Shown here piece after piece: positions 2,317 through 30,594 of a stretch of DNA of 33,696 nucleotides. The DNA is from an uncultured virus (IMG/VR IMGVR_UViG_3300042898_001580). Taxonomy: Duplodnaviria; Heunggongvirae; Uroviricota; Caudoviricetes; Crassvirales. Location of the stretch: IMG/VR virus record IMGVR_UViG_3300042898_001580; one strand, written 5' to 3'. Each line of letters starts with the position of its first letter. Positions within the stretch are counted from its first letter, which is position 1. The position numbers and the translations under genes were made by a program. The notes beneath the pieces are model-generated. The model was not told the DNA's origin. It saw only the letters and a program-made list of their open reading frames with translations, and made no database searches.

Positions 2317-3854
2317 TATGCTGCGTATTTTATTTCATCAATATATACAGTAGCATGCCAGTAAATAGTTTTATTAGCTTGCCCTGTTACTTGTACTAAC
2401 AAGGCATCTAGTCCACTATCAGGTGTTAAATCTAAAGCCCAAGTAGTTGCTCCAGCATTAGCTGCTTGATATGCAGGAGTAGAACTTACTACACCTGTAT
2501 TATCCATATATAAAGGAGTACCTACTAAAGAAAGAGTTCCTGAAATATTCTTTATTGTACACCAAGCATCGAATGTAATTACATCTCCTACTGTACCAGT
2601 ACCTCCACCTTGTTGTACACCTGTTACTTTTACATAACAATTAGCTACTGAATTAGCAGCTATTGAAATATAATAAGCTACCCCATCTAATAATAAAGTA
2701 GTTTTAGTAGCATCAGTAGTTATAACTAAACATTGCACTATAGAGTTTTGTGCAAATAATGTTCCTCCAAAACTAGAAGAACTATGTGATTTAGAACCTA
2801 CTCTAAAAGCATTTGCTTGTGACCCAGTAGCTACAGAATAATCTTGTGTAGCTTCGTTATTTGCACCTAATGTTATTGCCCCAAGTCCTGATGAGATATT
2901 ATTGAACCCTATTGAGGCAGAATAATTCCCTGTTGAGTCATTATCATAGCCTATAGCTGTAGAATAAGTAGCTGTTGCAGTATTTATACCTCCAATAGTT
3001 GTTGATCCTGTAGCACTTGCTGTATTATTAGTACCTACTATTAAGGCATAGTCTGCTGTTGCAGTATTAGTATCCCCTGAAACTAATATGTAATCGCCTG
3101 TTAAAGTATTACCACTACCTAAATCAGTGTTATAATCTCCACTAGAAGTAGAAGTAGCTCCTAGCTTCTTTACAGATTTTACACCTGTTGATTCCCATAA
3201 CCCTGGTTGGCTACTTATAAATTGGCTATCCCATGTAGAACCATTCCATTTAGCGACTACTATGAAGTTACCTGCTAGTGCATCACCTGCATCTATGGTA
3301 AGTCCAAATATAGATAGTGTATTACTATTTAAATCTAGCGTAGAGTTCCATACAATCCAAAACTCTTGTCCTGAAGTAGTTGCTGTACCTGTAATAGTTA
3401 AGTTACCTATAAGTGTTTGAGAACCTGTAAATTGCTGCCATTTTTTATTTATGTTAGCATTGAAGGTAATTGTGCCACTAGTAGGGGTAGCTTGACTTTC
3501 TATACCTTCGTATATTGAAGGTAAGTTAGTGTTGTTTAGAACTACTGTTACTACCCAAGCAGCTGCTACAATATCATATACTACTGTTATAAGTAAATTA
3601 CTTTGTGCTTCCTGTTCAGTTAAAGTTCTTCCAAAAATAGTAAAGTCATAACCATTTAAAGTTATAGCTCCTGTTTTTATAATGTTAAAACTCAAAGTAT
3701 TTGCAGGAGAGCTTGAAGGAGCTATTGTATAATTAGCTAGTAAAGAACCTGTATTATAAAATACATAGCAGTTGTATAAAAGATCAGTATCTAAAGTAGC
3801 CGTAGCTCCATTAAGATCAATTTGAGTATATGAAGTATTTAGTGCTTGTGCCAT
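2316..3854 (-). CDS. Tail fibre / receptor-binding protein with YadA-head-like (Hep_Hag) repeats
   Basis: 512 aa, Thr/Ser/Gly-rich, with ~14-aa repeats (NTATADYALIVG, NTATATYSTAIG, NEATQDYSVATG) and a duplicated N-terminal module (LNGYDFTIFG / LNSNTLSIFG). Confidence 0.7.
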   Translation of the reverse strand: MAQALNTSYTQIDLNGATATLDTDLLYNCYVFYNTGSLLANYTIAPSSSPANTLSFNIIKTGAITLNGYDFTIFGRTLTEQEAQSNLLITVVYDIVAAAWVVTVVLNNTNLPSIYEGIESQATPTSGTITFNANINKKWQQFTGSQTLIGNLTITGTATTSGQEFWIVWNSTLDLNSNTLSIFGLTIDAGDALAGNFIVVAKWNGSTWDSQFISSQPGLWESTGVKSVKKLGATSTSSGDYNTDLGSGNTLTGDYILVSGDTNTATADYALIVGTNNTASATGSTTIGGINTATATYSTAIGYDNDSTGNYSASIGFNNISSGLGAITLGANNEATQDYSVATGSQANAFRVGSKSHSSSSFGGTLFAQNSIVQCLVITTDATKTTLLLDGVAYYISIAANSVANCYVKVTGVQQGGGTGTVGDVITFDAWCTIKNISGTLSLVGTPLYMDNTGVVSSTPAYQAANAGATTWALDLTPDSGLDALLVQVTGQANKTIYWHATVYIDEIKYAA

Positions 3855-4690
3855 TATTTTATAGATTGAATTGATTGCCAGCCTAAAGTAGCTGCTACAT
3901 CAGAATTTACTTGGAAATCTACACTTAAAGGATAGCTACCTGAATTATCTAAATCAGGTACAGAAAGTGTACCTATTGAAGACCAATCAAAAGTAGTTGT
4001 TTGTCCAGCAGGTACAATTTCTCCGTTATACTGTTTAGCCATAAAAACTATTGTAGTATTTGTTACTCTTATGATTTTTATTTCAAATGTAACTCTTGTT
4101 ATTGCTGAGTAAGTAATTTTAGGAGTAGTTAGTAATGCTGTACCATCTAATCTAAATTTAAAATAAGTATCATTACTTAAAGAAGCTCCTGTAAATATAA
4201 AACCTGTTACATTTACTTCATCTCCATCTTGAGCTAAAGCATAGTCAGTATAATTTATATTTTGATAGCTACTTCCAAATAATTGATATGATCCTGTTCC
4301 TGCTGTAGCATTAAAGTAGTTAAATTGTAGTCTTCCACCTTGTGAAGAGGCAACTCCTGCTGGAGACACTTGTTGTCCACTTGCAACTGTTGTACCTGGA
4401 GCTGTATTACCTGTTGTACCTGTATTAGTAACTACTATCGATGTAGTAGTTGAACTAACTACAGTATAATAACCTGCATTCTCAATATATATTGATTGGC
4501 CTGGTACTGCCCAAGAACCTGTAGAAGGATTACTATTAGATACTGCTAAAGTTACATTAGCCCCTATTGCAGGTACAATAAACTGTGCAGTAGTAGTAGT
4601 AAAGGCATTTAATCCATTTACTCCATTTGGGCCTACTATAGAAGGTATAGTTATTTGGTCACATGAACAATTGCAATTTCCTGAACACAT
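3854..4690 (-). CDS. Fibre-like structural protein
   Basis: Likely start MCSGNCNCSC at 4690 (TAATG overlap), short G-X-Y stretch GPNGVNGLN, Thr-rich beta region. Confidence 0.6.
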   Translation of the reverse strand: MCSGNCNCSCDQITIPSIVGPNGVNGLNAFTTTTAQFIVPAIGANVTLAVSNSNPSTGSWAVPGQSIYIENAGYYTVVSSTTTSIVVTNTGTTGNTAPGTTVASGQQVSPAGVASSQGGRLQFNYFNATAGTGSYQLFGSSYQNINYTDYALAQDGDEVNVTGFIFTGASLSNDTYFKFRLDGTALLTTPKITYSAITRVTFEIKIIRVTNTTIVFMAKQYNGEIVPAGQTTTFDWSSIGTLSVPDLDNSGSYPLSVDFQVNSDVAATLGWQSIQSIK

Positions 4691-22479: not shown

Positions 22480-22746
22480 CATACCCCCCATGTTTATATA
22501 GGGTATTTGATACCCCGACTACCCACTTTAAGTAGTTGATTTATAGAAGGATACCCCCTTTTCTATAATAAAAATAGTGTGTATCCCCTGCGTTAGTATC
22601 CATAATAAAAATCATGGGTATGCTCTAAAGGAGTAACCAAAAAATTTTTAGAAATATTTTTTTAAAACTGAATGTGTGTACCCCGTTAGTAACCAGCCCC
22701 AAACAACACCCCCTCATATGGTCAGGTGGGTAAAGTACCTACCCTG
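22480..22746. repeat. TACCC-motif cluster at the divergent strand switch
   Basis: About 8-9 TACCC/GGGTA copies; direct repeat GTGTGTA(T)CCCC(TGC)GTTAGTA at 22577-22598 and 22674-22691; hairpin at 22723-22746. Confidence 0.6.
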
Positions 22747-22769
22747 TTTCACATTATACATCCGCAAAA

Positions 22770-23069
22770 ATGGCGAAAATTACAGTAGTGGTAGACTCAA
22801 CCACTCAAATCAACAACAGTGAGTCAAAAGACCTTGGTTGTTACAAACACAAGCTGCTACTTTCACGCAAGGTGACAGCTGATGGTGTAACTACCACCAA
22901 ACGTGAGACCTATACACTAATCACAGAGGACAGTGAGATAGGTGAACTAACTGAGGGTGTGAGGTATTGGAGCTTCGATTCTACCAAGTGGAAACCTGAG
23001 CCACGTACATTCACAGATGAGGCAACAGGTGAGACTATCACCTACAAGCGCCTTGTACCACGTGATTAA
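22770..23069 (+). CDS. Hypothetical protein, first gene of the plus-strand arm
   Basis: 99 aa, higher GC than its neighbours, has its own terminator. Confidence 0.7.
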   Translation: MAKITVVVDSTTQINNSESKDLGCYKHKLLLSRKVTADGVTTTKRETYTLITEDSEIGELTEGVRYWSFDSTKWKPEPRTFTDEATGETITYKRLVPRD

Positions 23070-23070
23070 T

Positions 23071-23100
23071 AGGAGCACCTTCGGGTGCTTCTTTCACTTT
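23071..23100 (+). terminator. Intrinsic terminator (cUUCGg loop)
   Basis: AGGAGCACC-TTCG-GGTGCTTCT followed by a T-rich tail. Confidence 0.8.
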
Positions 23101-23142
23101 ATATATTAGTAATGCTTACTACACTGCTTACTAAGCACTATT

Positions 23143-23271
23143 ATACTACAGTTTTCTTTGGCTGTTTGCCTTAAAACTCAATGGACATCAGGCTAATAGA
23201 TATAATCTATGATGATTTAATTGTCATAGGATTACTCTATAAGATAACCAACATCCTGAAAACTGTAGTAT
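23143..23271 (+). ncRNA. Stem-enclosed multibranch RNA element
   Basis: Perfect 14-bp closing stem ATACTACAGTTTTC/GAAAACTGTAGTAT with internal hairpins. Confidence 0.45.
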
Positions 23272-23326
23272 TTTACCCTGTTTATCTTATAATATTATAG
23301 CAATAACATTCAAACACATACACAAA

Positions 23327-23512
23327 ATGGAATTAGTTATATCACCTAATAAAATGAAATCATTACAAAATTCTGCCATTAAAAATGCTGAATCAAATGA
23401 TTATGTTTTCAACAGGTCTAAAGAAATGACTGAATTGCTTCAAACATTAGAGGCAATGCAAGTTCGTAAGATTGAAATAGACTTATCACCTGATAGTGAT
23501 AGTCTTCTGTAA
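23327..23512 (+). CDS. Hypothetical protein
   Basis: 61 aa, AC-rich leader without SD sequence. Confidence 0.6.
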   Translation: MELVISPNKMKSLQNSAIKNAESNDYVFNRSKEMTELLQTLEAMQVRKIEIDLSPDSDSLL

Positions 23513-23515
23513 TAT

Positions 23516-23540
23516 AAGAGCCTGTAACAAGGCTCTTTTA
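23516..23540 (+). terminator. Intrinsic terminator
   Basis: AAGAGCCT-GTAACA-AGGCTCTT-TT. Confidence 0.65.
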
Positions 23541-23693
23541 ACTCTTTGAGTTCACCTGAGATTGATGTAATGTCAGTTTTGGGTGAACTTTCTTTAATTT
23601 ATGATTCAAATTCCGTAGCAATAGTTTAAAGTTTTACTGTTGTAAATACGTCTGAGAAGAAACTTTTATTACTAACCTTTTAATCTTATTCTT

Positions 23694-23819
23694 ATGGTTA
23701 TTTGTTTTCACGCAGGATTATATCCTGTAGTTAATACTTCAACTAACGAAATAGTTGATGTATGTGCCACTTTAAAAGAGGCAAAAACTCTTTATCCTTC
23801 TGCCACAGTGCAGTTGTAA
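23694..23819 (+). CDS. Small hypothetical protein (41 aa), not in ORF track
   Basis: MVICFHAGLYPVVNTSTNEIVDVCATLKEAKTLYPSATVQL*. Confidence 0.5.
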   Translation: MVICFHAGLYPVVNTSTNEIVDVCATLKEAKTLYPSATVQL

Positions 23820-23946
23820 AATACTAGTAGTTCTTTCTGCACAAGGACTACCTATAACTCTTTGGGGGTGCAGATAACCCAATGTTTTCCTCTTATGGGT
23901 AGGAATGTGCTGACATAAGATTAGCATAAAACCCATTATTTATACT

Positions 23947-24168
23947 ATGATACTATTCAATACATTGAAGAAAGCTTCACACTATGTTAAATATAAAAAC
24001 AGTGTAGTAGCTAAAGACCCTTATTATAAAATCTATGATGAGCATTACAAATATTTCTTTATATCCAAAGATTTAGTTATTGAATCATTTGGTTGGAGAT
24101 GTGGTTGTGGTTGTGGTCAAAATTCTAATGATAATATAGTCATTGGAAGAATAAAAGCAGGGTTTTAA
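23947..24168 (+). CDS. Hypothetical protein with CGCGC motif
   Basis: 73 aa; WRCGCGCG. Confidence 0.55.
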   Translation: MILFNTLKKASHYVKYKNSVVAKDPYYKIYDEHYKYFFISKDLVIESFGWRCGCGCGQNSNDNIVIGRIKAGF

Positions 24169-24295
24169 TACTGTTTATCAGACATAGCAGTGTACAAGTC
24201 TGAGGTAATATAAATTAAATTGAAACATTTAATCACTATAGCCAAGTTGGTAACTTAACAACCATATTATTTTATTAACTCAAACAAACAGAAAC

Positions 24296-24601
24296 GTGAA
24301 ACAAGAATTAACAAAATTAGAAGAGTTGCTTAGAGATTTAGGCAATCTTTATAAGTGGGATATGGTTATTACAGCAAGTGTTCTTGTTCAAAATATGGCA
24401 TTTAATGCTGATAAATTTGAACATAAAGACTTTCTTCCTTATTTATCTATTCTTGAGAAGATGAAGAACTATAATGAATCAAACCATATACTTCAATGGG
24501 CTTATGATGAAGCCTCAATGATTGTAGAAGCTCATTTTTATTCTCTTTATTTAGATGAATCTGACCTTAATGCTCTTGAGAATCAATCAACAGAGCAATA
24601 A
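24296..24601 (+). CDS. Hypothetical protein
   Basis: 101 aa, GTG start after an AAAC-rich leader. Confidence 0.6.
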   Translation: MKQELTKLEELLRDLGNLYKWDMVITASVLVQNMAFNADKFEHKDFLPYLSILEKMKNYNESNHILQWAYDEASMIVEAHFYSLYLDESDLNALENQSTEQ

Positions 24602-24709
24602 TCTAGCTAATGTATATGGAAAGTCTGTTATATAACATACATTAGAAACACTACCTTTGGAGAATCTAAAGGTTACAGACCGTTAAGCATAAATGGCGAA
24701 CATTAATGT

Positions 24710-24802
24710 ATAACTATAGTAAGATAATTAGCTCAGTTGGTTAGAGCCGTGGTTTACCACAAGGTCATAGGTTCAAGTCCTGTATTATCTTATTATAGTT
24801 AT
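24710..24802 (+). ncRNA. tRNA-like element without an anticodon loop, with acceptor stem extended to 19 bp
   Basis: TAGCTCAGTTGGTTAGAGC D-arm, AGGTC variable loop, ATAGG-TTCAAGT-CCTGT T-arm; anticodon arm reduced to GTGG-TTTA-CCAC; no CCA. Confidence 0.7.
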
Positions 24803-24814
24803 TTTTATTAACAT

Positions 24815-24890
24815 TAAACTACTATATTATAGACGAAGGTTAATCCAATGAGATTAATAAATAGGATATAAGGTATAATATAGTAGTTTA
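24815..24890 (+). ncRNA. Stem-enclosed RNA element
   Basis: Perfect 17-bp inverted repeat TAAACTACTATATTATA/TATAATATAGTAGTTTA with inner hairpin TTAATC/GATTAA. Confidence 0.45.
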
Positions 24891-24917
24891 TTTTTATTAA
24901 CTCTAAAAACAAACAAA

Positions 24918-25121
24918 ATGAAATACTTCATCTTATTCATTATCTTTATAGCTGTATTTGCAGCTTTATTCTTTATACTATCATTATTTGGTATGTTATG
25001 GTTTAACTATCAATCAGTTATTACCGACCCTAATTGGTTTATGTTTTATACCATAATGATAGGTTGGTGGACATCAGCATTAGTATCAGCTGATTATTAT
25101 GAACAAGTAATAGACAAATAA
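24918..25121 (+). CDS. Small two-TM membrane protein
   Basis: 67 aa, two hydrophobic helices. Confidence 0.65.
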   Translation: MKYFILFIIFIAVFAALFFILSLFGMLWFNYQSVITDPNWFMFYTIMIGWWTSALVSADYYEQVIDK

Positions 25122-25131
25122 CTTTAAGATT

Positions 25132-25226
25132 TAAATAAACTATAGTATAGAATGTTTCATCTTACAACTACTCCTTTGAAGAGAATAATAGTTCTAACTG
25201 GTAGAATGCTTATTATAGTTTATTTA
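25132..25226 (+). ncRNA. Stem-enclosed element with a tRNA D-arm on its 3' side
   Basis: 16-bp closing stem (one G-U); TAGTTCTAACTGGTAGAATG at 25189-25208. Confidence 0.45.
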
Positions 25227-25232
25227 TATTAT

Positions 25233-25326
25233 TAAAACTGTAATATCTATAGTATCTCTAAATGCGTACTTAAAGAGTTGGAATACTATAAAGTGCATGA
25301 GTATTCCCTATAGTATTACAGTTTTA
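25233..25326 (+). ncRNA. Stem-enclosed three-way junction element
   Basis: 19-bp closing stem with one bulge; inner GGAATACT/AGTATTCC and CTCT/AGAG hairpins. Confidence 0.45.
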
Positions 25327-25348
25327 TTTTAACTTAAATTAACTAACT

Positions 25349-25696
25349 ATGACTCAACTACAAATAGCTGAAAAGCTCAGAGAACAAATTAAAGAACAAT
25401 GGCCTTATGTATCTACTATATTAGCTTTATATGCTAATAACAGTGATGGTAGATTTACTGATAGAATACAAGATATGGTTGATAGGTTATTACCTAGAGA
25501 GGTATTTTATCAAAAAGCCAAATGTTTTGTAGATCAAGAAACTACATTACGTAAGGTAGTTTTATTTGGTAAAGAAGTAAATAAACTTGATGATATAATT
25601 AAATATCATATAGCTTATGCAGAACCTATTCTTTCATTACCAATAAACCAAGTATTATTTTCGTCAGAAGATAATCCATTAGGAATTTTAAAATAA
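25349..25696 (+). CDS. Hypothetical protein
   Basis: 115-aa ORF. Confidence 0.65.
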   Translation: MTQLQIAEKLREQIKEQWPYVSTILALYANNSDGRFTDRIQDMVDRLLPREVFYQKAKCFVDQETTLRKVVLFGKEVNKLDDIIKYHIAYAEPILSLPINQVLFSSEDNPLGILK

Positions 25697-25772
25697 TTAA
25701 GGAAAATCCTTAATAATAGGTAGTAGAACGCAAAAGGGTAGTAGAGGTACTACCCTTACCTAAATTAACTAT

Positions 25773-25943
25773 ATGTTAGTAGAAACAAAAGAAAATGTAA
25801 GAGTAGATTATTCTCTATTAGGTAGAATAATATCTGCAAGAAGAGAATATACCACAAAAGAGCTATTAGATATAGCTGTTAGAAACAAATCAAAAGCTAT
25901 GTTAAACAGAACTGTAGCTTATCGTGTAACAAACTATTATTAA
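25773..25943 (+). CDS. Small hypothetical protein (56 aa), not in ORF track
   Basis: MLVETKENVRVDYSLLGRIISARREY...RVTNYY*; followed by a terminator. Confidence 0.55.
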   Translation: MLVETKENVRVDYSLLGRIISARREYTTKELLDIAVRNKSKAMLNRTVAYRVTNYY

Positions 25944-25963
25944 AACCTTTATCAGTATCACTT

Positions 25964-25995
25964 AAAGAGTCTATTAGCAGTAGTAGGCTCTTTTT
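25964..25995 (+). terminator. Intrinsic terminator
   Basis: AAAGAGTCTATTA-GCAG-TAGTAGGCTCTTT-TT, with G-U pairs on the plus strand. Confidence 0.7.
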
Positions 25996-26007
25996 AACAA
26001 ACATAAC

Positions 26008-26145
26008 ATGAAAAAACGTACACTCTATTTTGACAAATGGTCTACACTTAAACCATTTATGGACAGATTACAAAAGCTATATGGTGCTGTAATCAACAAA
26101 CTACGATATGAAGGTGATAAATACATTGTCACTTTTAGTTATTAA
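26008..26145 (+). CDS. Small hypothetical protein (45 aa), not in ORF track
   Basis: MKKRTLYFDKWSTLKPFMDRLQKLYGAVINKLRYEGDKYIVTFSY*. Confidence 0.55.
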   Translation: MKKRTLYFDKWSTLKPFMDRLQKLYGAVINKLRYEGDKYIVTFSY

Positions 26146-26210
26146 CATTATGGGGAAAGGCTACATGTTTGTTTAGAGTGTAGCCAAGTACCCATTTTTA
26201 TTTAAACAAC

Positions 26211-26498
26211 ATGAGAACCTTAAACGAGTTATATAAATTACTTTTAACAGAATTTGAAACATATGACCATCCTGGTATTTGTTGTGCTATAATAAATTTA
26301 AAATGGTTTAGTAAAATAACAATGGAAGAATACCATGCTTTACTTAAACATTTTGAGTCAGAAAGGCCCAAATTATTTAAAAATACATTATTTATATTTA
26401 AAAATAAATATAGGTATAAAACAGAATATTGGTGGCCTCCTTTAAGTAAAACTCCAAGAATAAAATTTATTAAACACTTAATAAACAAAACAAAATGA
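26211..26498 (+). CDS. Hypothetical protein
   Basis: 95 aa, GICCAI...YWWP...RIKFIKHLI pattern. Confidence 0.65.
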   Translation: MRTLNELYKLLLTEFETYDHPGICCAIINLKWFSKITMEEYHALLKHFESERPKLFKNTLFIFKNKYRYKTEYWWPPLSKTPRIKFIKHLINKTK

Positions 26499-26821
26499 AA
26501 AAACTAATTTTAATTGCAATGATAGCTTTATTAACTAGTTGCACAGAATCTACTGTTAAAATAACAGATGAAGAAACAGAATTACCTAATAAAGTAGTTA
26601 AATCTTTAGATGATACTACATTAGTTAAACAGTACGCAATAGTAGAAACAAATGATAAGTTGTATTTACTTACAAAGAAAGATACTGAAAAGAAATTCTT
26701 TGTGGAAAAAACAATAACAAAGAATGCTGATGAAGGTACTGCCTTTCTTCTTGGAATATTAGTAACACTTTTTGTTGCTGTACTTATAGGAGTAGCAATA
26801 AACAATTATAATGAACCATAA
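26495..26821 (+). CDS. Predicted lipoprotein with C-terminal TM helix
   Basis: MKKLILIAMIALLTSC lipobox plus hydrophobic C-terminus. Confidence 0.65.
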   Translation: MKKLILIAMIALLTSCTESTVKITDEETELPNKVVKSLDDTTLVKQYAIVETNDKLYLLTKKDTEKKFFVEKTITKNADEGTAFLLGILVTLFVAVLIGVAINNYNEP

Positions 26822-30488: not shown

Positions 30489-30499
30489 TTAAAAACTAT

Positions 30500-30594
30500 A
30501 AAGCAAGCCAAGCTAAGAAATTATTTACTAACAAAAACAGTTACTGCACACTGTAGGTATTTAACTAATTAGATGGTACTTGGCTTGCTTTTTA
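30500..30594 (+). ncRNA. Stem-enclosed RNA element / long-loop terminator
   Basis: Perfect 13-bp AAAGCAAGCCAAG/CTTGGCTTGCTTT enclosing 66 nt with an inner hairpin. Confidence 0.4.

Follow-up and report, generated by a model that had tools for sequence, protein, structure and literature searches.

What could be the role of the long AT-rich inverted repeats that occupy the gaps between small genes of a crAss-like phage, each of them closed around a different sequence? Few known phages are as abundant as the crAss-like phages, and the DNA considered here (hereafter the window, 33,696 nt from an uncultured member of the Crassvirales, IMG/VR record IMGVR_UViG_3300042898_001580) belongs to a freshwater (lake) phage, its region 23000-26000 being found in 24 runs, all of them of DNA and of lake, freshwater or river origin. 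A sequence-only reading of the window had proposed that the repeats form a common double-stranded RNA carrier, from which a panel of small structured RNAs would be released as decoys against host defences. The small-ORF block concerned is presumably an early region, judging only by gene order.

Results

Stem-closed elements between the small genes

All five inverted repeats noticed in that reading (E1 to E5) were found where it had placed them, in gaps between small genes, and a sixth module, E6, was added (Table 1). Each of the six sits between co-directional plus-strand ORFs. Such elements are far denser than chance: a scan of the plus strand of the window for stems with 15 or more pairs, at most 2 G-U pairs, at most 1 mismatch and a loop of 30-130 nt returned 6 stems, against 0-5 per 33.7 kb (mean 1.95) in 20 block-wise dinucleotide shuffles. 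Five of these 6 stems are intergenic in the small-ORF block, four of them packed into 620 nt.

Table 1. Stem-closed modules and shared tails of the window, with whole-element fold z-scores against shuffled controls
Feature	Position	Strand	Description	Arms (pairing)	z, plus strand	z, minus strand
E1	23143..23271	+	perfect closing stem of 14 bp, 101-nt insert	23143-23156 / 23258-23271 (14/14 paired)	-4.8	-6.3
E2	24708..24804	+	19-20-bp closing helix continuing the acceptor stem of a tRNA-derived body (24722-24791)	24710-24728 / 24784-24802 (19 nt: 18 Watson-Crick, 1 G-U)	-5.0	
Shared tail TTTTTATTAAC	24802..24812	+	after E2			
E3	24813..24892	+	17-18-bp closing stem, 42-nt insert	24815-24831 / 24874-24890 (core, 17 perfect pairs; extension to 27 nt at 89%)	-4.7	
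Shared tail TTTTTATTAAC	24891..24901	+	after E3; start codon 24918 is 16 nt on			
E4	25128..25230	+	19-bp closing stem (1 G-U, 1 mismatch), 63-nt insert	25129-25147 / 25211-25229 (19 nt at 89%)	-2.4	
E5	25231..25328	+	13-bp stem, bulge, 6 more bp; insert of 54-68 nt; U-rich tail after	25233-25245 / 25314-25326 (13 perfect pairs; 1-nt bulge and 6 pairs in the minimum-energy fold)	-4.5	-8.2
E6	30497..30594	+	GC-richer 15-bp closing stem, 66-nt insert, TTTTT tail; not in the sequence-only reading			

Folded as whole elements, E1 to E5 all had negative plus-strand z-scores against shuffles, E4 having the weakest one, with 4 of 200 shuffles folding equally well. The closing helix marks the 3' end of a cistron or lies close to it. 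E4 begins 7 nt after the stop of a 67-aa ORF, and the start codon at 25349 is 20 nt past the tail of E5. E1 is not needed to end the upstream cistron, because a conventional GC-rich hairpin (23071-23092) already precedes it by 50 nt. Two tandem pairs are formed, with 12 nt between E2 and E3 and 6 nt between E4 and E5.

The closing helix and its strand

The claim of a common carrier stood up well. The closing helix consists of 14-24 AT-rich base pairs, with an A-rich run before it and a U-rich tail after it in most elements; its arm sequences are related, and they are kept in relatives in which the inserts are swapped. The 3' arms finish in AGTTT(T)A, followed by T-rich sequence. The identical tail reported behind two elements, TTTTTATTAAC, was confirmed, and the copy at the E2 site also trails an unrelated element at the same site in three relatives (g4922, g5190 and g9151).

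Pairs were counted in closing stems of 8 genomes, 28 different ones in all, whose limits were set with an equal penalty on G-U and A-C. They comprise 419 Watson-Crick pairs, 14 G-U, 1 A-C and 10 others; some of the G-U pairs fall in homologous arms, so that they represent fewer than 14 independent events. This imbalance agrees with the proposal that G-U pairs favour the plus-strand RNA and argues that the closing stems act in that RNA. E6 is kept in 4 relatives, its stem being paired in 50 of 50 cells; in g3120, 3 of 10 stem pairs are changed on both sides, while the insert has diverged. Such compensated changes indicate a closing stem under selection.

A degenerate word, AAYTRTART, is common to the arms beyond the needs of pairing, and 8 of its 17 matches in the window belong to arms (those of E1, E2, E4 and E5), although its genome-wide count is not above chance. 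It hints that the arms are recognised by sequence, for which a plain terminator would have no use. Of two other arm motifs counted over the genome, CTATAGT was matched 21 times where 10.6 were expected, a number reached by 1 of 100 shuffles, and AGTTTATTT is not enriched. The word TTATTAAC occurs upstream of three start codons. A sigma-70 scan, which does not cover Bacteroidota-type or virion-polymerase promoters, gave 44 sites against 60.5 expected, none of them consistently by the stems.

Are the elements ordinary terminators? None of E1 to E5 was among the 9 terminator-like sites returned by a consensus scan, since they have oversized loops (42-101 nt) and too few G-C pairs in the stem (0-2). 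Inserts of 40-120 nt are indeed unusual for intrinsic terminators. E6, with its GC-rich stem and TTTTT, comes nearest to one; of the features of an intrinsic terminator, E1 to E5 have the U-rich tail only.

Inserts and the tRNA-like body of E2

The panel of structured RNAs, on the other hand, did not survive the analysis of the inserts. Folded without their closing stems, the 28 inserts resemble their shuffles on either strand alike (mean z -0.72 plus, -0.75 minus). For the inserts of E5, E1 and g3120, it is the minus strand that folds better (z -4.1, -3.0 and -3.2 versus -0.95, -1.95 and -0.78 on the plus strand). Of the payloads assigned by the sequence-only reading, the tRNA body of E2 is supported by Rfam, but the D-arm-like hairpin of E4 is missing from its minimum-energy fold; the hairpin of E3 and the three-way junction of E5 are minimum-energy predictions only. 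E3, E4 and E5 matched no Rfam family; with E-values up to 10, Rfam gave tRNA for E2 and, otherwise, chance-level microRNA matches for E5. No copy of these three inserts occurs in the 13 related loci searched, and no insert is repeated within the window or within any related genome examined, each insert of the window matching itself only.

E2 is the only insert recognisable as an RNA. It scores 48.7 bits against the Rfam tRNA family (RF00005; cut-off 29), with 5 anticodon-loop positions absent, and ARAGORN reports it as 'tRNA-???', giving it an anticodon of two letters. The body includes a 7-bp acceptor stem, U8-A9, a D arm, a variable loop and a T arm, and no CCA is encoded. This cloverleaf resembles that of a canonical tRNA and scores above the curated cut-off, but leader and trailer pair for 12 bp past the acceptor stem, and the anticodon arm of the fold is a 4-bp stem with a UUUA loop. 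With 4 nt in this loop (5 nt in a relative) instead of the normal 7 nt, E2 has no anticodon. The homologue in this relative (L014/L135) reaches 51.6 bits; taken together, the two sequences pair 65 of 66 cells, and their five differences all leave the helices intact or improve them. With two sequences, covariation has no statistical weight, 252 of 500 shuffles reaching the observed value. E2 is a tRNA-derived RNA with its anticodon loop shortened to 4-5 nt, and one relative has kept it.

The D and T arms of E2 match Ile/Met/Asp/Asn-type phage tRNAs among the matches listed, and the sole blastn match in GenBank phages is a tRNA of Psychrobacter phage Psymv2, annotated as tRNA-Lys/Asn. A search of IMG/VR gave no exact match to the tRNA-like core; a degenerate pattern retrieved the known relative alone there and nothing in species genomes. 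A looser pattern of D arm and T arm returned at least 80 ordinary tRNAs, with the normal 18-nt spacing in all matches listed. Literature searches yielded no paper on tRNA-like RNAs in Crassvirales intergenic regions and, among the papers listed, nothing relevant on phage tRNA-like decoys.

Exchange of inserts among related phages

In seven related contigs, the same gaps are likewise occupied by stem-closed elements. Such an element follows the same left flank in 6 of 8 genomes, with six different inserts. E1 has a copy identical at 128 of 129 positions in g6000 and a partial one in g6004, whereas its left flank is followed by different stem-closed elements in five other genomes. The arms of E4 enclose another insert, of 60 nt, in g6000, and those of E5 enclose four other inserts (in g6000, in g4021 and two in g5190). 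E3 is missing from g9151, in a stretch that is otherwise collinear, and a 14-nt direct repeat flanks it. A module has also moved as a unit: in g4922 and g9151, one insert, identical at 76 of 77 positions, stands at two different loci, and the identity is bounded by the arms. A remnant half element is present in a further relative (L013, 2050-2095). In the same region, L013 has a tmRNA as well as another tRNA-like RNA, the anticodon arm of which is odd.

Breakpoints of homology coincide with the arms. Within 22700-26000, 23 of 84 BLAST block ends lie within 6 nt of an arm, although arms make up 8.6% of the region (binomial p 4e-7); in intergenic DNA alone, this becomes 23 of 61 against a coverage of 19.7% (p 9e-4), and 12 of 38 end clusters touch arms when ends are collapsed by position, all these block ends coming from seven related genomes and not being independent observations. 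Comparison of these genomes indicates that the arms are conserved while the inserts are replaced wholesale, and that the arms mark DNA swaps between related phages. Inserts common to several genomes are 94-100% identical, versus 82-97% for neighbouring ORFs, and this high identity could stem from selection acting on the inserts instead of from a recent exchange. Relative to its flanks, each of the 7 insert sets found in more than one genome keeps the same orientation. The sequence-only reading had argued from the tandem pairs against one terminator per gene. This argument is weak: in relatives, the same arms are separated by genes or by a tRNA-like RNA, so that the pairs look like leftovers of cassette loss.

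Across 22500-26500, those contigs of 4 runs that span E2-E5 match the window letter for letter, free of joints and indels; no strand-changing joint was seen in contigs of these runs, which keep the major form only. Farther away, in a distant relative whose 67-aa protein is 45% identical, the place of E2/E3 is taken by a textbook GC-rich terminator followed by T8. A 16-nt arm pattern matched 116 loci, mostly by chance, with both arms in only 3 contigs; a conserved 27-mer retrieved the 4 contigs already known and no others; and a protein-guided metagenome scan gave 3 distant loci. Nothing relevant was found by Rfam in the distant relatives L131-L133. Three stem-closed stretches in long early gaps of phage phi14:2 resembled the modules, but two of them fall within a tmRNA according to ARAGORN and Rfam, and they were not counted. 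In the nearest 95%-complete relative (G001), we found no phage-encoded RNase III and neither Y1 transposase, tyrosine recombinase nor TROVE protein.

Discussion

We propose, with about even confidence, that the closing helices punctuate early transcripts, through termination or RNase III-type processing, and also serve as recombination linkers resembling the PeSLs (promoter-early stem-loop cassettes) of T4-type phages, sometimes carrying small RNAs. The hairpin-closed modules would lie in plus-strand transcripts of the small-ORF block, with the closing helix as their working part. This helix could shape transcript ends either by making the polymerase stop or pause, or by offering about two turns of double-stranded RNA to the host RNase III, and under either route the upstream mRNA would keep a protective 3' stem. 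The arms and tails, near-identical among many modules, could provide short homology for the phage recombination machinery, a mechanism that we infer from the position of the breakpoints, so that genes and inserts would be exchanged as cassettes between co-circulating phages. The inserts would be passengers of mixed kind, with no sign of a conserved fold outside E2; the latter, unable to decode, could be cut from its carrier by RNase P or RNase III.

One could instead see the modules as exchangeable small-RNA cassettes, a wider form of the decoy proposal, in which the inserts would be what functions and the carrier would process and stabilise strain-specific small RNAs, including an anticodon-less tRNA mimic, that act for example on defence nucleases, tRNA-binding proteins or RNA quality control of the host. 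We consider this unlikely. A genuine tRNA-derived RNA such as E2, with its shortened anticodon arm kept in two phages, speaks in favour of it, as do the RNA genes housed in the same region of L013 and the higher identity of the inserts than of the ORFs nearby; their wholesale replacement in close relatives would fit diversifying selection. However, insert-only folds that match shuffles on both strands, the lack of any family or homologue for E3, E4 and E5 in the searches made and the weightless covariation of the two E2 sequences all count against it, and nothing in the window points to a defence target. According to a study of phi14:2, long early intergenic regions of this phage are transcribed above most genes and their RNAs stay abundant (10.1101/2020.03.07.982082), but the abundant region is, at least in part, a tmRNA and not a hairpin module. 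Quite unlikely, in our view, is the fuller scenario in which the arms would double as a double-stranded RNA handle, from which host nucleases free small stable RNAs, and as homology for trading these RNAs, the set of each strain being tuned against tRNA-targeting or RNA-sensing defences of local hosts.

It is also rather improbable that the modules are selfish or neutral DNA, that is, miniature inverted-repeat elements or scars of illegitimate or homologous recombination, functionless and tolerated between the genes of a hyperplastic region. The presence or absence of E3 with its flanking direct repeat, the one module at two loci, the half element of L013 and the unstructured inserts would all suit this view. 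Yet no insert occurs twice in one genome, unlike what is seen with a proliferating MITE, G001 has 0 matches to Y1 transposase and 0 to tyrosine recombinase, and 6 of 8 genomes keep some stem-closed element at the same site; moreover, an RNA helix under selection is what the 14:1 ratio of G-U over A-C and the compensated stem of E6 suggest. The repeats could also be a signal acting in the DNA: an invertible switch, a cruciform or single-stranded hairpin start zone for the virion RNA polymerase, or an attC/REP-type recombination site. The AT-rich and nearly perfect arms would suit such a signal, as would the G-T pairs, whose strand asymmetry is known from single-strand hairpin sites too. It is very improbable, given the common orientation of all 7 shared insert sets with their flanks, the relative G001 without recombinase and arm ends that presumably do not fit the attC R''/R' consensus; the contigs of 4 other runs, without strand-changing joints, are a weak test, as they keep the major form only. 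The phi14:2 study reports that the virion polymerase transcribes single-stranded or denatured DNA in vitro, and that the early transcripts have no upstream motif in common (10.1101/2020.03.07.982082). Here, the non-template strand would be the one favoured by G-T pairs, and cruciform extrusion would be less likely with loops as long as 40-120 nt.

Punctuating helices that double as linkers would make the modules a testable candidate for how crAss-like early transcripts are bounded and how early regions diversify. As conserved RNA helices, they may terminate or cleave early transcripts, and they may be recombination joints as well, which would extend the PeSL idea beyond T4-type phages. E2, an anticodon-less tRNA look-alike enclosed by a 20-bp carrier helix, makes a compact candidate non-decoding tRNA mimic. 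If the inserts were true active small RNAs, they would represent a new phage route to carry and exchange RNA effectors.

The sequence-only reading recognised no described family with such an architecture, but it overlooked the YrlA-type Y RNAs and the PeSLs. YrlA-type Y RNAs of bacteria and phages have an end-to-end stem and a tRNA-like domain with a shortened anticodon arm, and RNase P cuts within such a stem in YrlA of M. smegmatis (PMC4201824). E2 shares with them the long stem between 5' and 3' ends leading into a tRNA-like domain, the D and T arms and the short anticodon arm, whereas the Ro-binding motif GNCGAA(N)G found in the long stem of Y RNAs (PMC4201824) is missing from its stem (24708-24728). 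A TROVE/Rsr gene, which for a Y RNA is expected a few kb away at most and on the same strand, was not found by Pfam in the 21 plus-strand ORFs of the window, nor PF05731 in G001.

Integron attC sites also have conserved inverted ends, a centre variable in length and sequence, a position at cassette boundaries and a strand asymmetry; here, by contrast, the ORFs lie between elements, and no integrase is present in G001. A parallel for the processing route can be drawn with the early genes of phage T7, the RNase III hairpins of which are single, irregular, about 60 nt long and devoid of large inserts, and are not known to act as recombination linkers. They form an intergenic series in a polycistronic early transcript, with about two helix turns, and the cut leaves a 3' stem on the upstream mRNA; by analogy, the modules described here may do the same.

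PeSLs are composite motifs of terminator and promoter that drive cassette shuffling, with a small G/C-tract hairpin joined to a sigma-70-type promoter (PMC4122927, PMC2839356). The modules differ from it by their 14-24 AT-rich pairs around a variable insert of 40-120 nt, by the lack of a recognisable promoter and by their host genome, that of a crAss-like podovirus with its own virion RNA polymerase; with no promoter consistently beside the stems in the sigma-70 scan, the parallel is incomplete. Both are nevertheless repeated stem-loop motifs between small ORFans of a hyperplastic, early-expressed region, onto which homology breakpoints and cassette swaps of close relatives map (PMC2839356, PMC4122927), mini-circles that arise by exchange between flanking motifs being a further mark of PeSL cassettes.

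Stem-closed elements in the small-ORF block

A block of crAss-like structural genes lies on the minus strand of the window; in it PHROGs assigns the terminase large subunit, portal protein, major head protein and GroEL-like chaperonin. The small plus-strand ORFs from about 22.7 kb on received no family assignment from PHROGs or Pfam, and we infer from gene order that their block is early. Public runs with the window sequence come from lake, freshwater and river metagenomes. The nearest relative genome found, G001, is 96 kb long and 95% complete, and the GroEL-like gene is shared by six more contigs from IMG/VR, with protein identities of 92-99%. Among relatives, the small-ORF block is a mosaic of blocks with 80-100% identity interspersed with unrelated sequence.

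A sequence-only reading had described five inverted repeats here (E1 to E5), and all of them were found where it placed them, together with gaps of 12 and 6 nt within the tandem pairs and two identical TTTTTATTAAC tails; the observation of stem-closed elements is confirmed. A stem scan of the window plus strand (at least 15 pairs, loop of 30-130 nt) returned 6 matches against about 2 per 33.7 kb in shuffles, and 4 of the 6 are packed inside 620 nt. It also gave a module missing from that reading, E6. The E6 stem is GC-richer and followed by a TTTTT tail; the module is conserved in four relatives, and a 13-nt word directly before its 3' arm is retained though the remaining insert (the enclosed sequence) diverged.

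Stem-closed elements and neighbouring features
Feature	Genome	Coordinates	Strand	Description
E1	window	23143-23271	plus	stem-closed element
Short-loop hairpin	window	23548-23590		43 nt, U-rich tail
Conserved stretch	window	24602-24709		108 nt, non-coding, directly upstream of E2
E2	window	24708-24804	plus	stem-closed element
E3	window	24813-24892	plus	stem-closed element
E4	window	25128-25230	plus	stem-closed element
E5	window	25231-25328	plus	stem-closed element
E6	window	30497-30594	plus	sixth module, stem scan
Second tRNA-like RNA	L013	2100-2173
tmRNA	L013	2949-3329
CAGTTGTAATA-type hairpin	g4922	1619-1676
CAGTTGTAATA-type hairpin	g9151	2468-2595
CAGTTGTAATA-type hairpin	g6000	3495-3577
84-nt GC-rich element	L131	53-136
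84-nt GC-rich element	L132	1385-1468
tmRNA	phi14:2 (L141, NC_021806)	4031-4500

Folded whole, E1, E2, E3 and E5 were far more stable than dinucleotide shuffles (z -4.5 to -5.0), and E4 less so (z -2.4). Once the closing stems were removed, the inserts (28, from eight genomes) folded no better than shuffles, with mean z of -0.72 and -0.75 on the two strands, so that the strong whole-element scores stem from the closing stems. These were delimited with an equal penalty for G-U and A-C, and the 28 distinct stems contain 419 Watson-Crick, 14 G-U, 1 A-C and 10 other pairs. The claim that G-U pairs favour the plus strand therefore holds, although some of them are inherited in homologous arms, and the excess points to helices formed in RNA of the plus strand, on which the flanking genes are also read. 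The inserts of E5, E1 and g3120 do not fit so simple a picture, since their minus-strand folds are the better ones. In five genomes the E6 stem is paired throughout; in g3120, 3 of 10 stem pairs changed on both sides while the insert diverged, all three in a single lineage.

The tRNA-like body of E2

The E2 insert is a tRNA-derived body (Rfam tRNA, 48.7 bits) from which five anticodon-loop positions are missing. ARAGORN reports it as 'tRNA-???' with an anticodon of two letters, and the predicted fold has a 4-bp stem with a UUUA cap at the anticodon-arm position. Its D and T arms match Ile/Met/Asp/Asn-type phage tRNAs, whereas spacing is normal in 80 of 80 tRNAs with similar arms among the matches listed. 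Twelve further pairs extend the 7-bp acceptor stem into leader and trailer. The five differences between the window and g9151 (G-C to U-G, C·A to C-G, U·G to U-A and a 1-nt loop indel) leave every helix unbroken, but two sequences carry no statistical power for covariation (252/500 shuffles). The proposed tRNA body of E2 is confirmed. For E3, E4 and E5 Rfam gave no matching family, also when 546 nt were searched at lax thresholds. Overall we consider the finding of moderate interest, its most distinctive part being this anticodon-less tRNA look-alike.

A second tRNA-like RNA occurs in the relative L013 (Rfam tRNA, 36.5 bits; no ARAGORN call). The 17 nt of its anticodon arm do not allow the standard 5-bp stem with a 7-nt loop, and it lies between the remnant of an E4-type element and a pair of E5-type modules.

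Variable inserts and homology breakpoints

The corresponding gaps in relatives are also stem-closed, with other inserts. Behind a common left flank, the E1 site holds six different inserts in 6 of 8 genomes. At the E2/E3 site, g9151 has E2 only, g4922 and g5190 an unrelated 62-nt element, and g6000 this same element plus more; all variants, including the window's, end in an identical T-rich tail. In g6000, g5190 and g4021 the arms of E4 and E5 are found again, enclosing unrelated inserts of 38-89 nt. The proposed shared carrier is supported. In L013, two small ORFs and the second tRNA-like RNA lie between E4-type and E5-type arms, which makes the window's tandem pairs look like the outcome of cassette loss.

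Between 22700 and 26000, 23 of 84 BLAST block ends fall within 6 nt of an arm, arms and margin making up 8.6% of the region; for intergenic DNA alone the figures are 23/61 and 19.7%, and 12 of 38 clusters touch arms when ends are collapsed by position, with p-values that overstate independence because the seven genomes are related. One module lies at one locus in g4922 and at another in g9151 (insert identity 76/77), and the matching sequence starts and stops at the arms. On both sides of E3 stands a direct repeat (14 nt) of the tail, which unequal exchange between tails fits at least as well as target-site duplication.

Other non-coding features share this region. The short-loop hairpin has copies with 100% identity in g4922 and g5190 and with 98% in g9151, while its flanks differ; it marks a further module boundary, of the conventional short-loop kind. 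The conserved stretch shows 100% identity in g6000 and g9151, 107/107 in g4922 and 99% in L013, neighbouring ORFs showing 82-97%; its fold is modest (z -1.85 plus, 0.05 minus), and inspection by eye suggests possible pairing between a hairpin loop and the word ACAGAC further downstream. A variable-length hairpin with CAGTTGTAATA-type arms, absent from the window, always precedes the word AGTGCAGAGGGATTA and follows a small conserved hairpin, which suggests that it may be the one expandable stem of a larger non-coding RNA with defined structure.

Proposed role of the closing helices

The closing helices (14-24 bp) follow an A-rich run, precede a U-rich tail and lie just past stop codons or just before the next gene's leader; E4 starts 7 nt past a stop codon. 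In the distant relatives L131/L132, a textbook terminator occupies the site homologous to E2/E3, in the gap before the gene of a 67-aa protein (45% identical). On this basis, we read the helices as transcript-punctuating signals doubling as recombination linkers; a panel of decoys, as proposed earlier, is currently unsupported. The helices could terminate transcription, although the terminator scan placed them outside the canonical definition; E1 comes after a conventional GC-rich hairpin. Alternatively, they could be cut by RNase III, which prefers helices of about two turns, the length of several of these. No RNase III was found in G001, and the host enzyme would thus be needed.

The L131/L132 terminator is followed by a GC-rich element of 84 nt that contains a T-loop-like word, GGTTCGACTCC. 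ARAGORN and Rfam gave no tRNA call for this element, and its minimum-energy fold is two hairpins.

Comparison with known systems

Readings as a MITE, an inverton or an attC site each fail on at least one defining feature. E2 is alike in outline to YrlA-type Y RNAs (PMC4201824), but has no Ro-binding motif, and no TROVE gene was found among the window's plus-strand ORFs or in G001.

In phage phi14:2, the passages seen of a preprint (10.1101/2020.03.07.982082) describe very abundant, stable early intergenic RNAs with no assigned function, one of them at the g005-g006 junction, and make no tmRNA link for it. ARAGORN calls a tmRNA (tag GSSVQKLAMVA; Rfam 46 bits against a cut-off of 47) in the long gap without coding sequence that precedes g006, the preprint's gene numbers probably mapping onto the RefSeq record. 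With this called tmRNA in at least one of the abundant-RNA gaps, phi14:2 is a precedent for RNA genes in the early regions of crAss-like phages, not for the hairpin modules themselves. In L013, Rfam also identifies a tmRNA within the small-ORF block (54.3 bits against a cut-off of 47; no ARAGORN call), with a tag frame that by eye is unusually long and has KLAA before the stop; this cassette is absent from the window.

The closest functional parallel is with the promoter-early stem-loop cassettes (PeSLs) of T4-type phages (PMC2839356, PMC4122927). Although a sigma-70 scan gave no consistent counterpart of their promoter half beside the stems, three PeSL features are present here wholly or in part.
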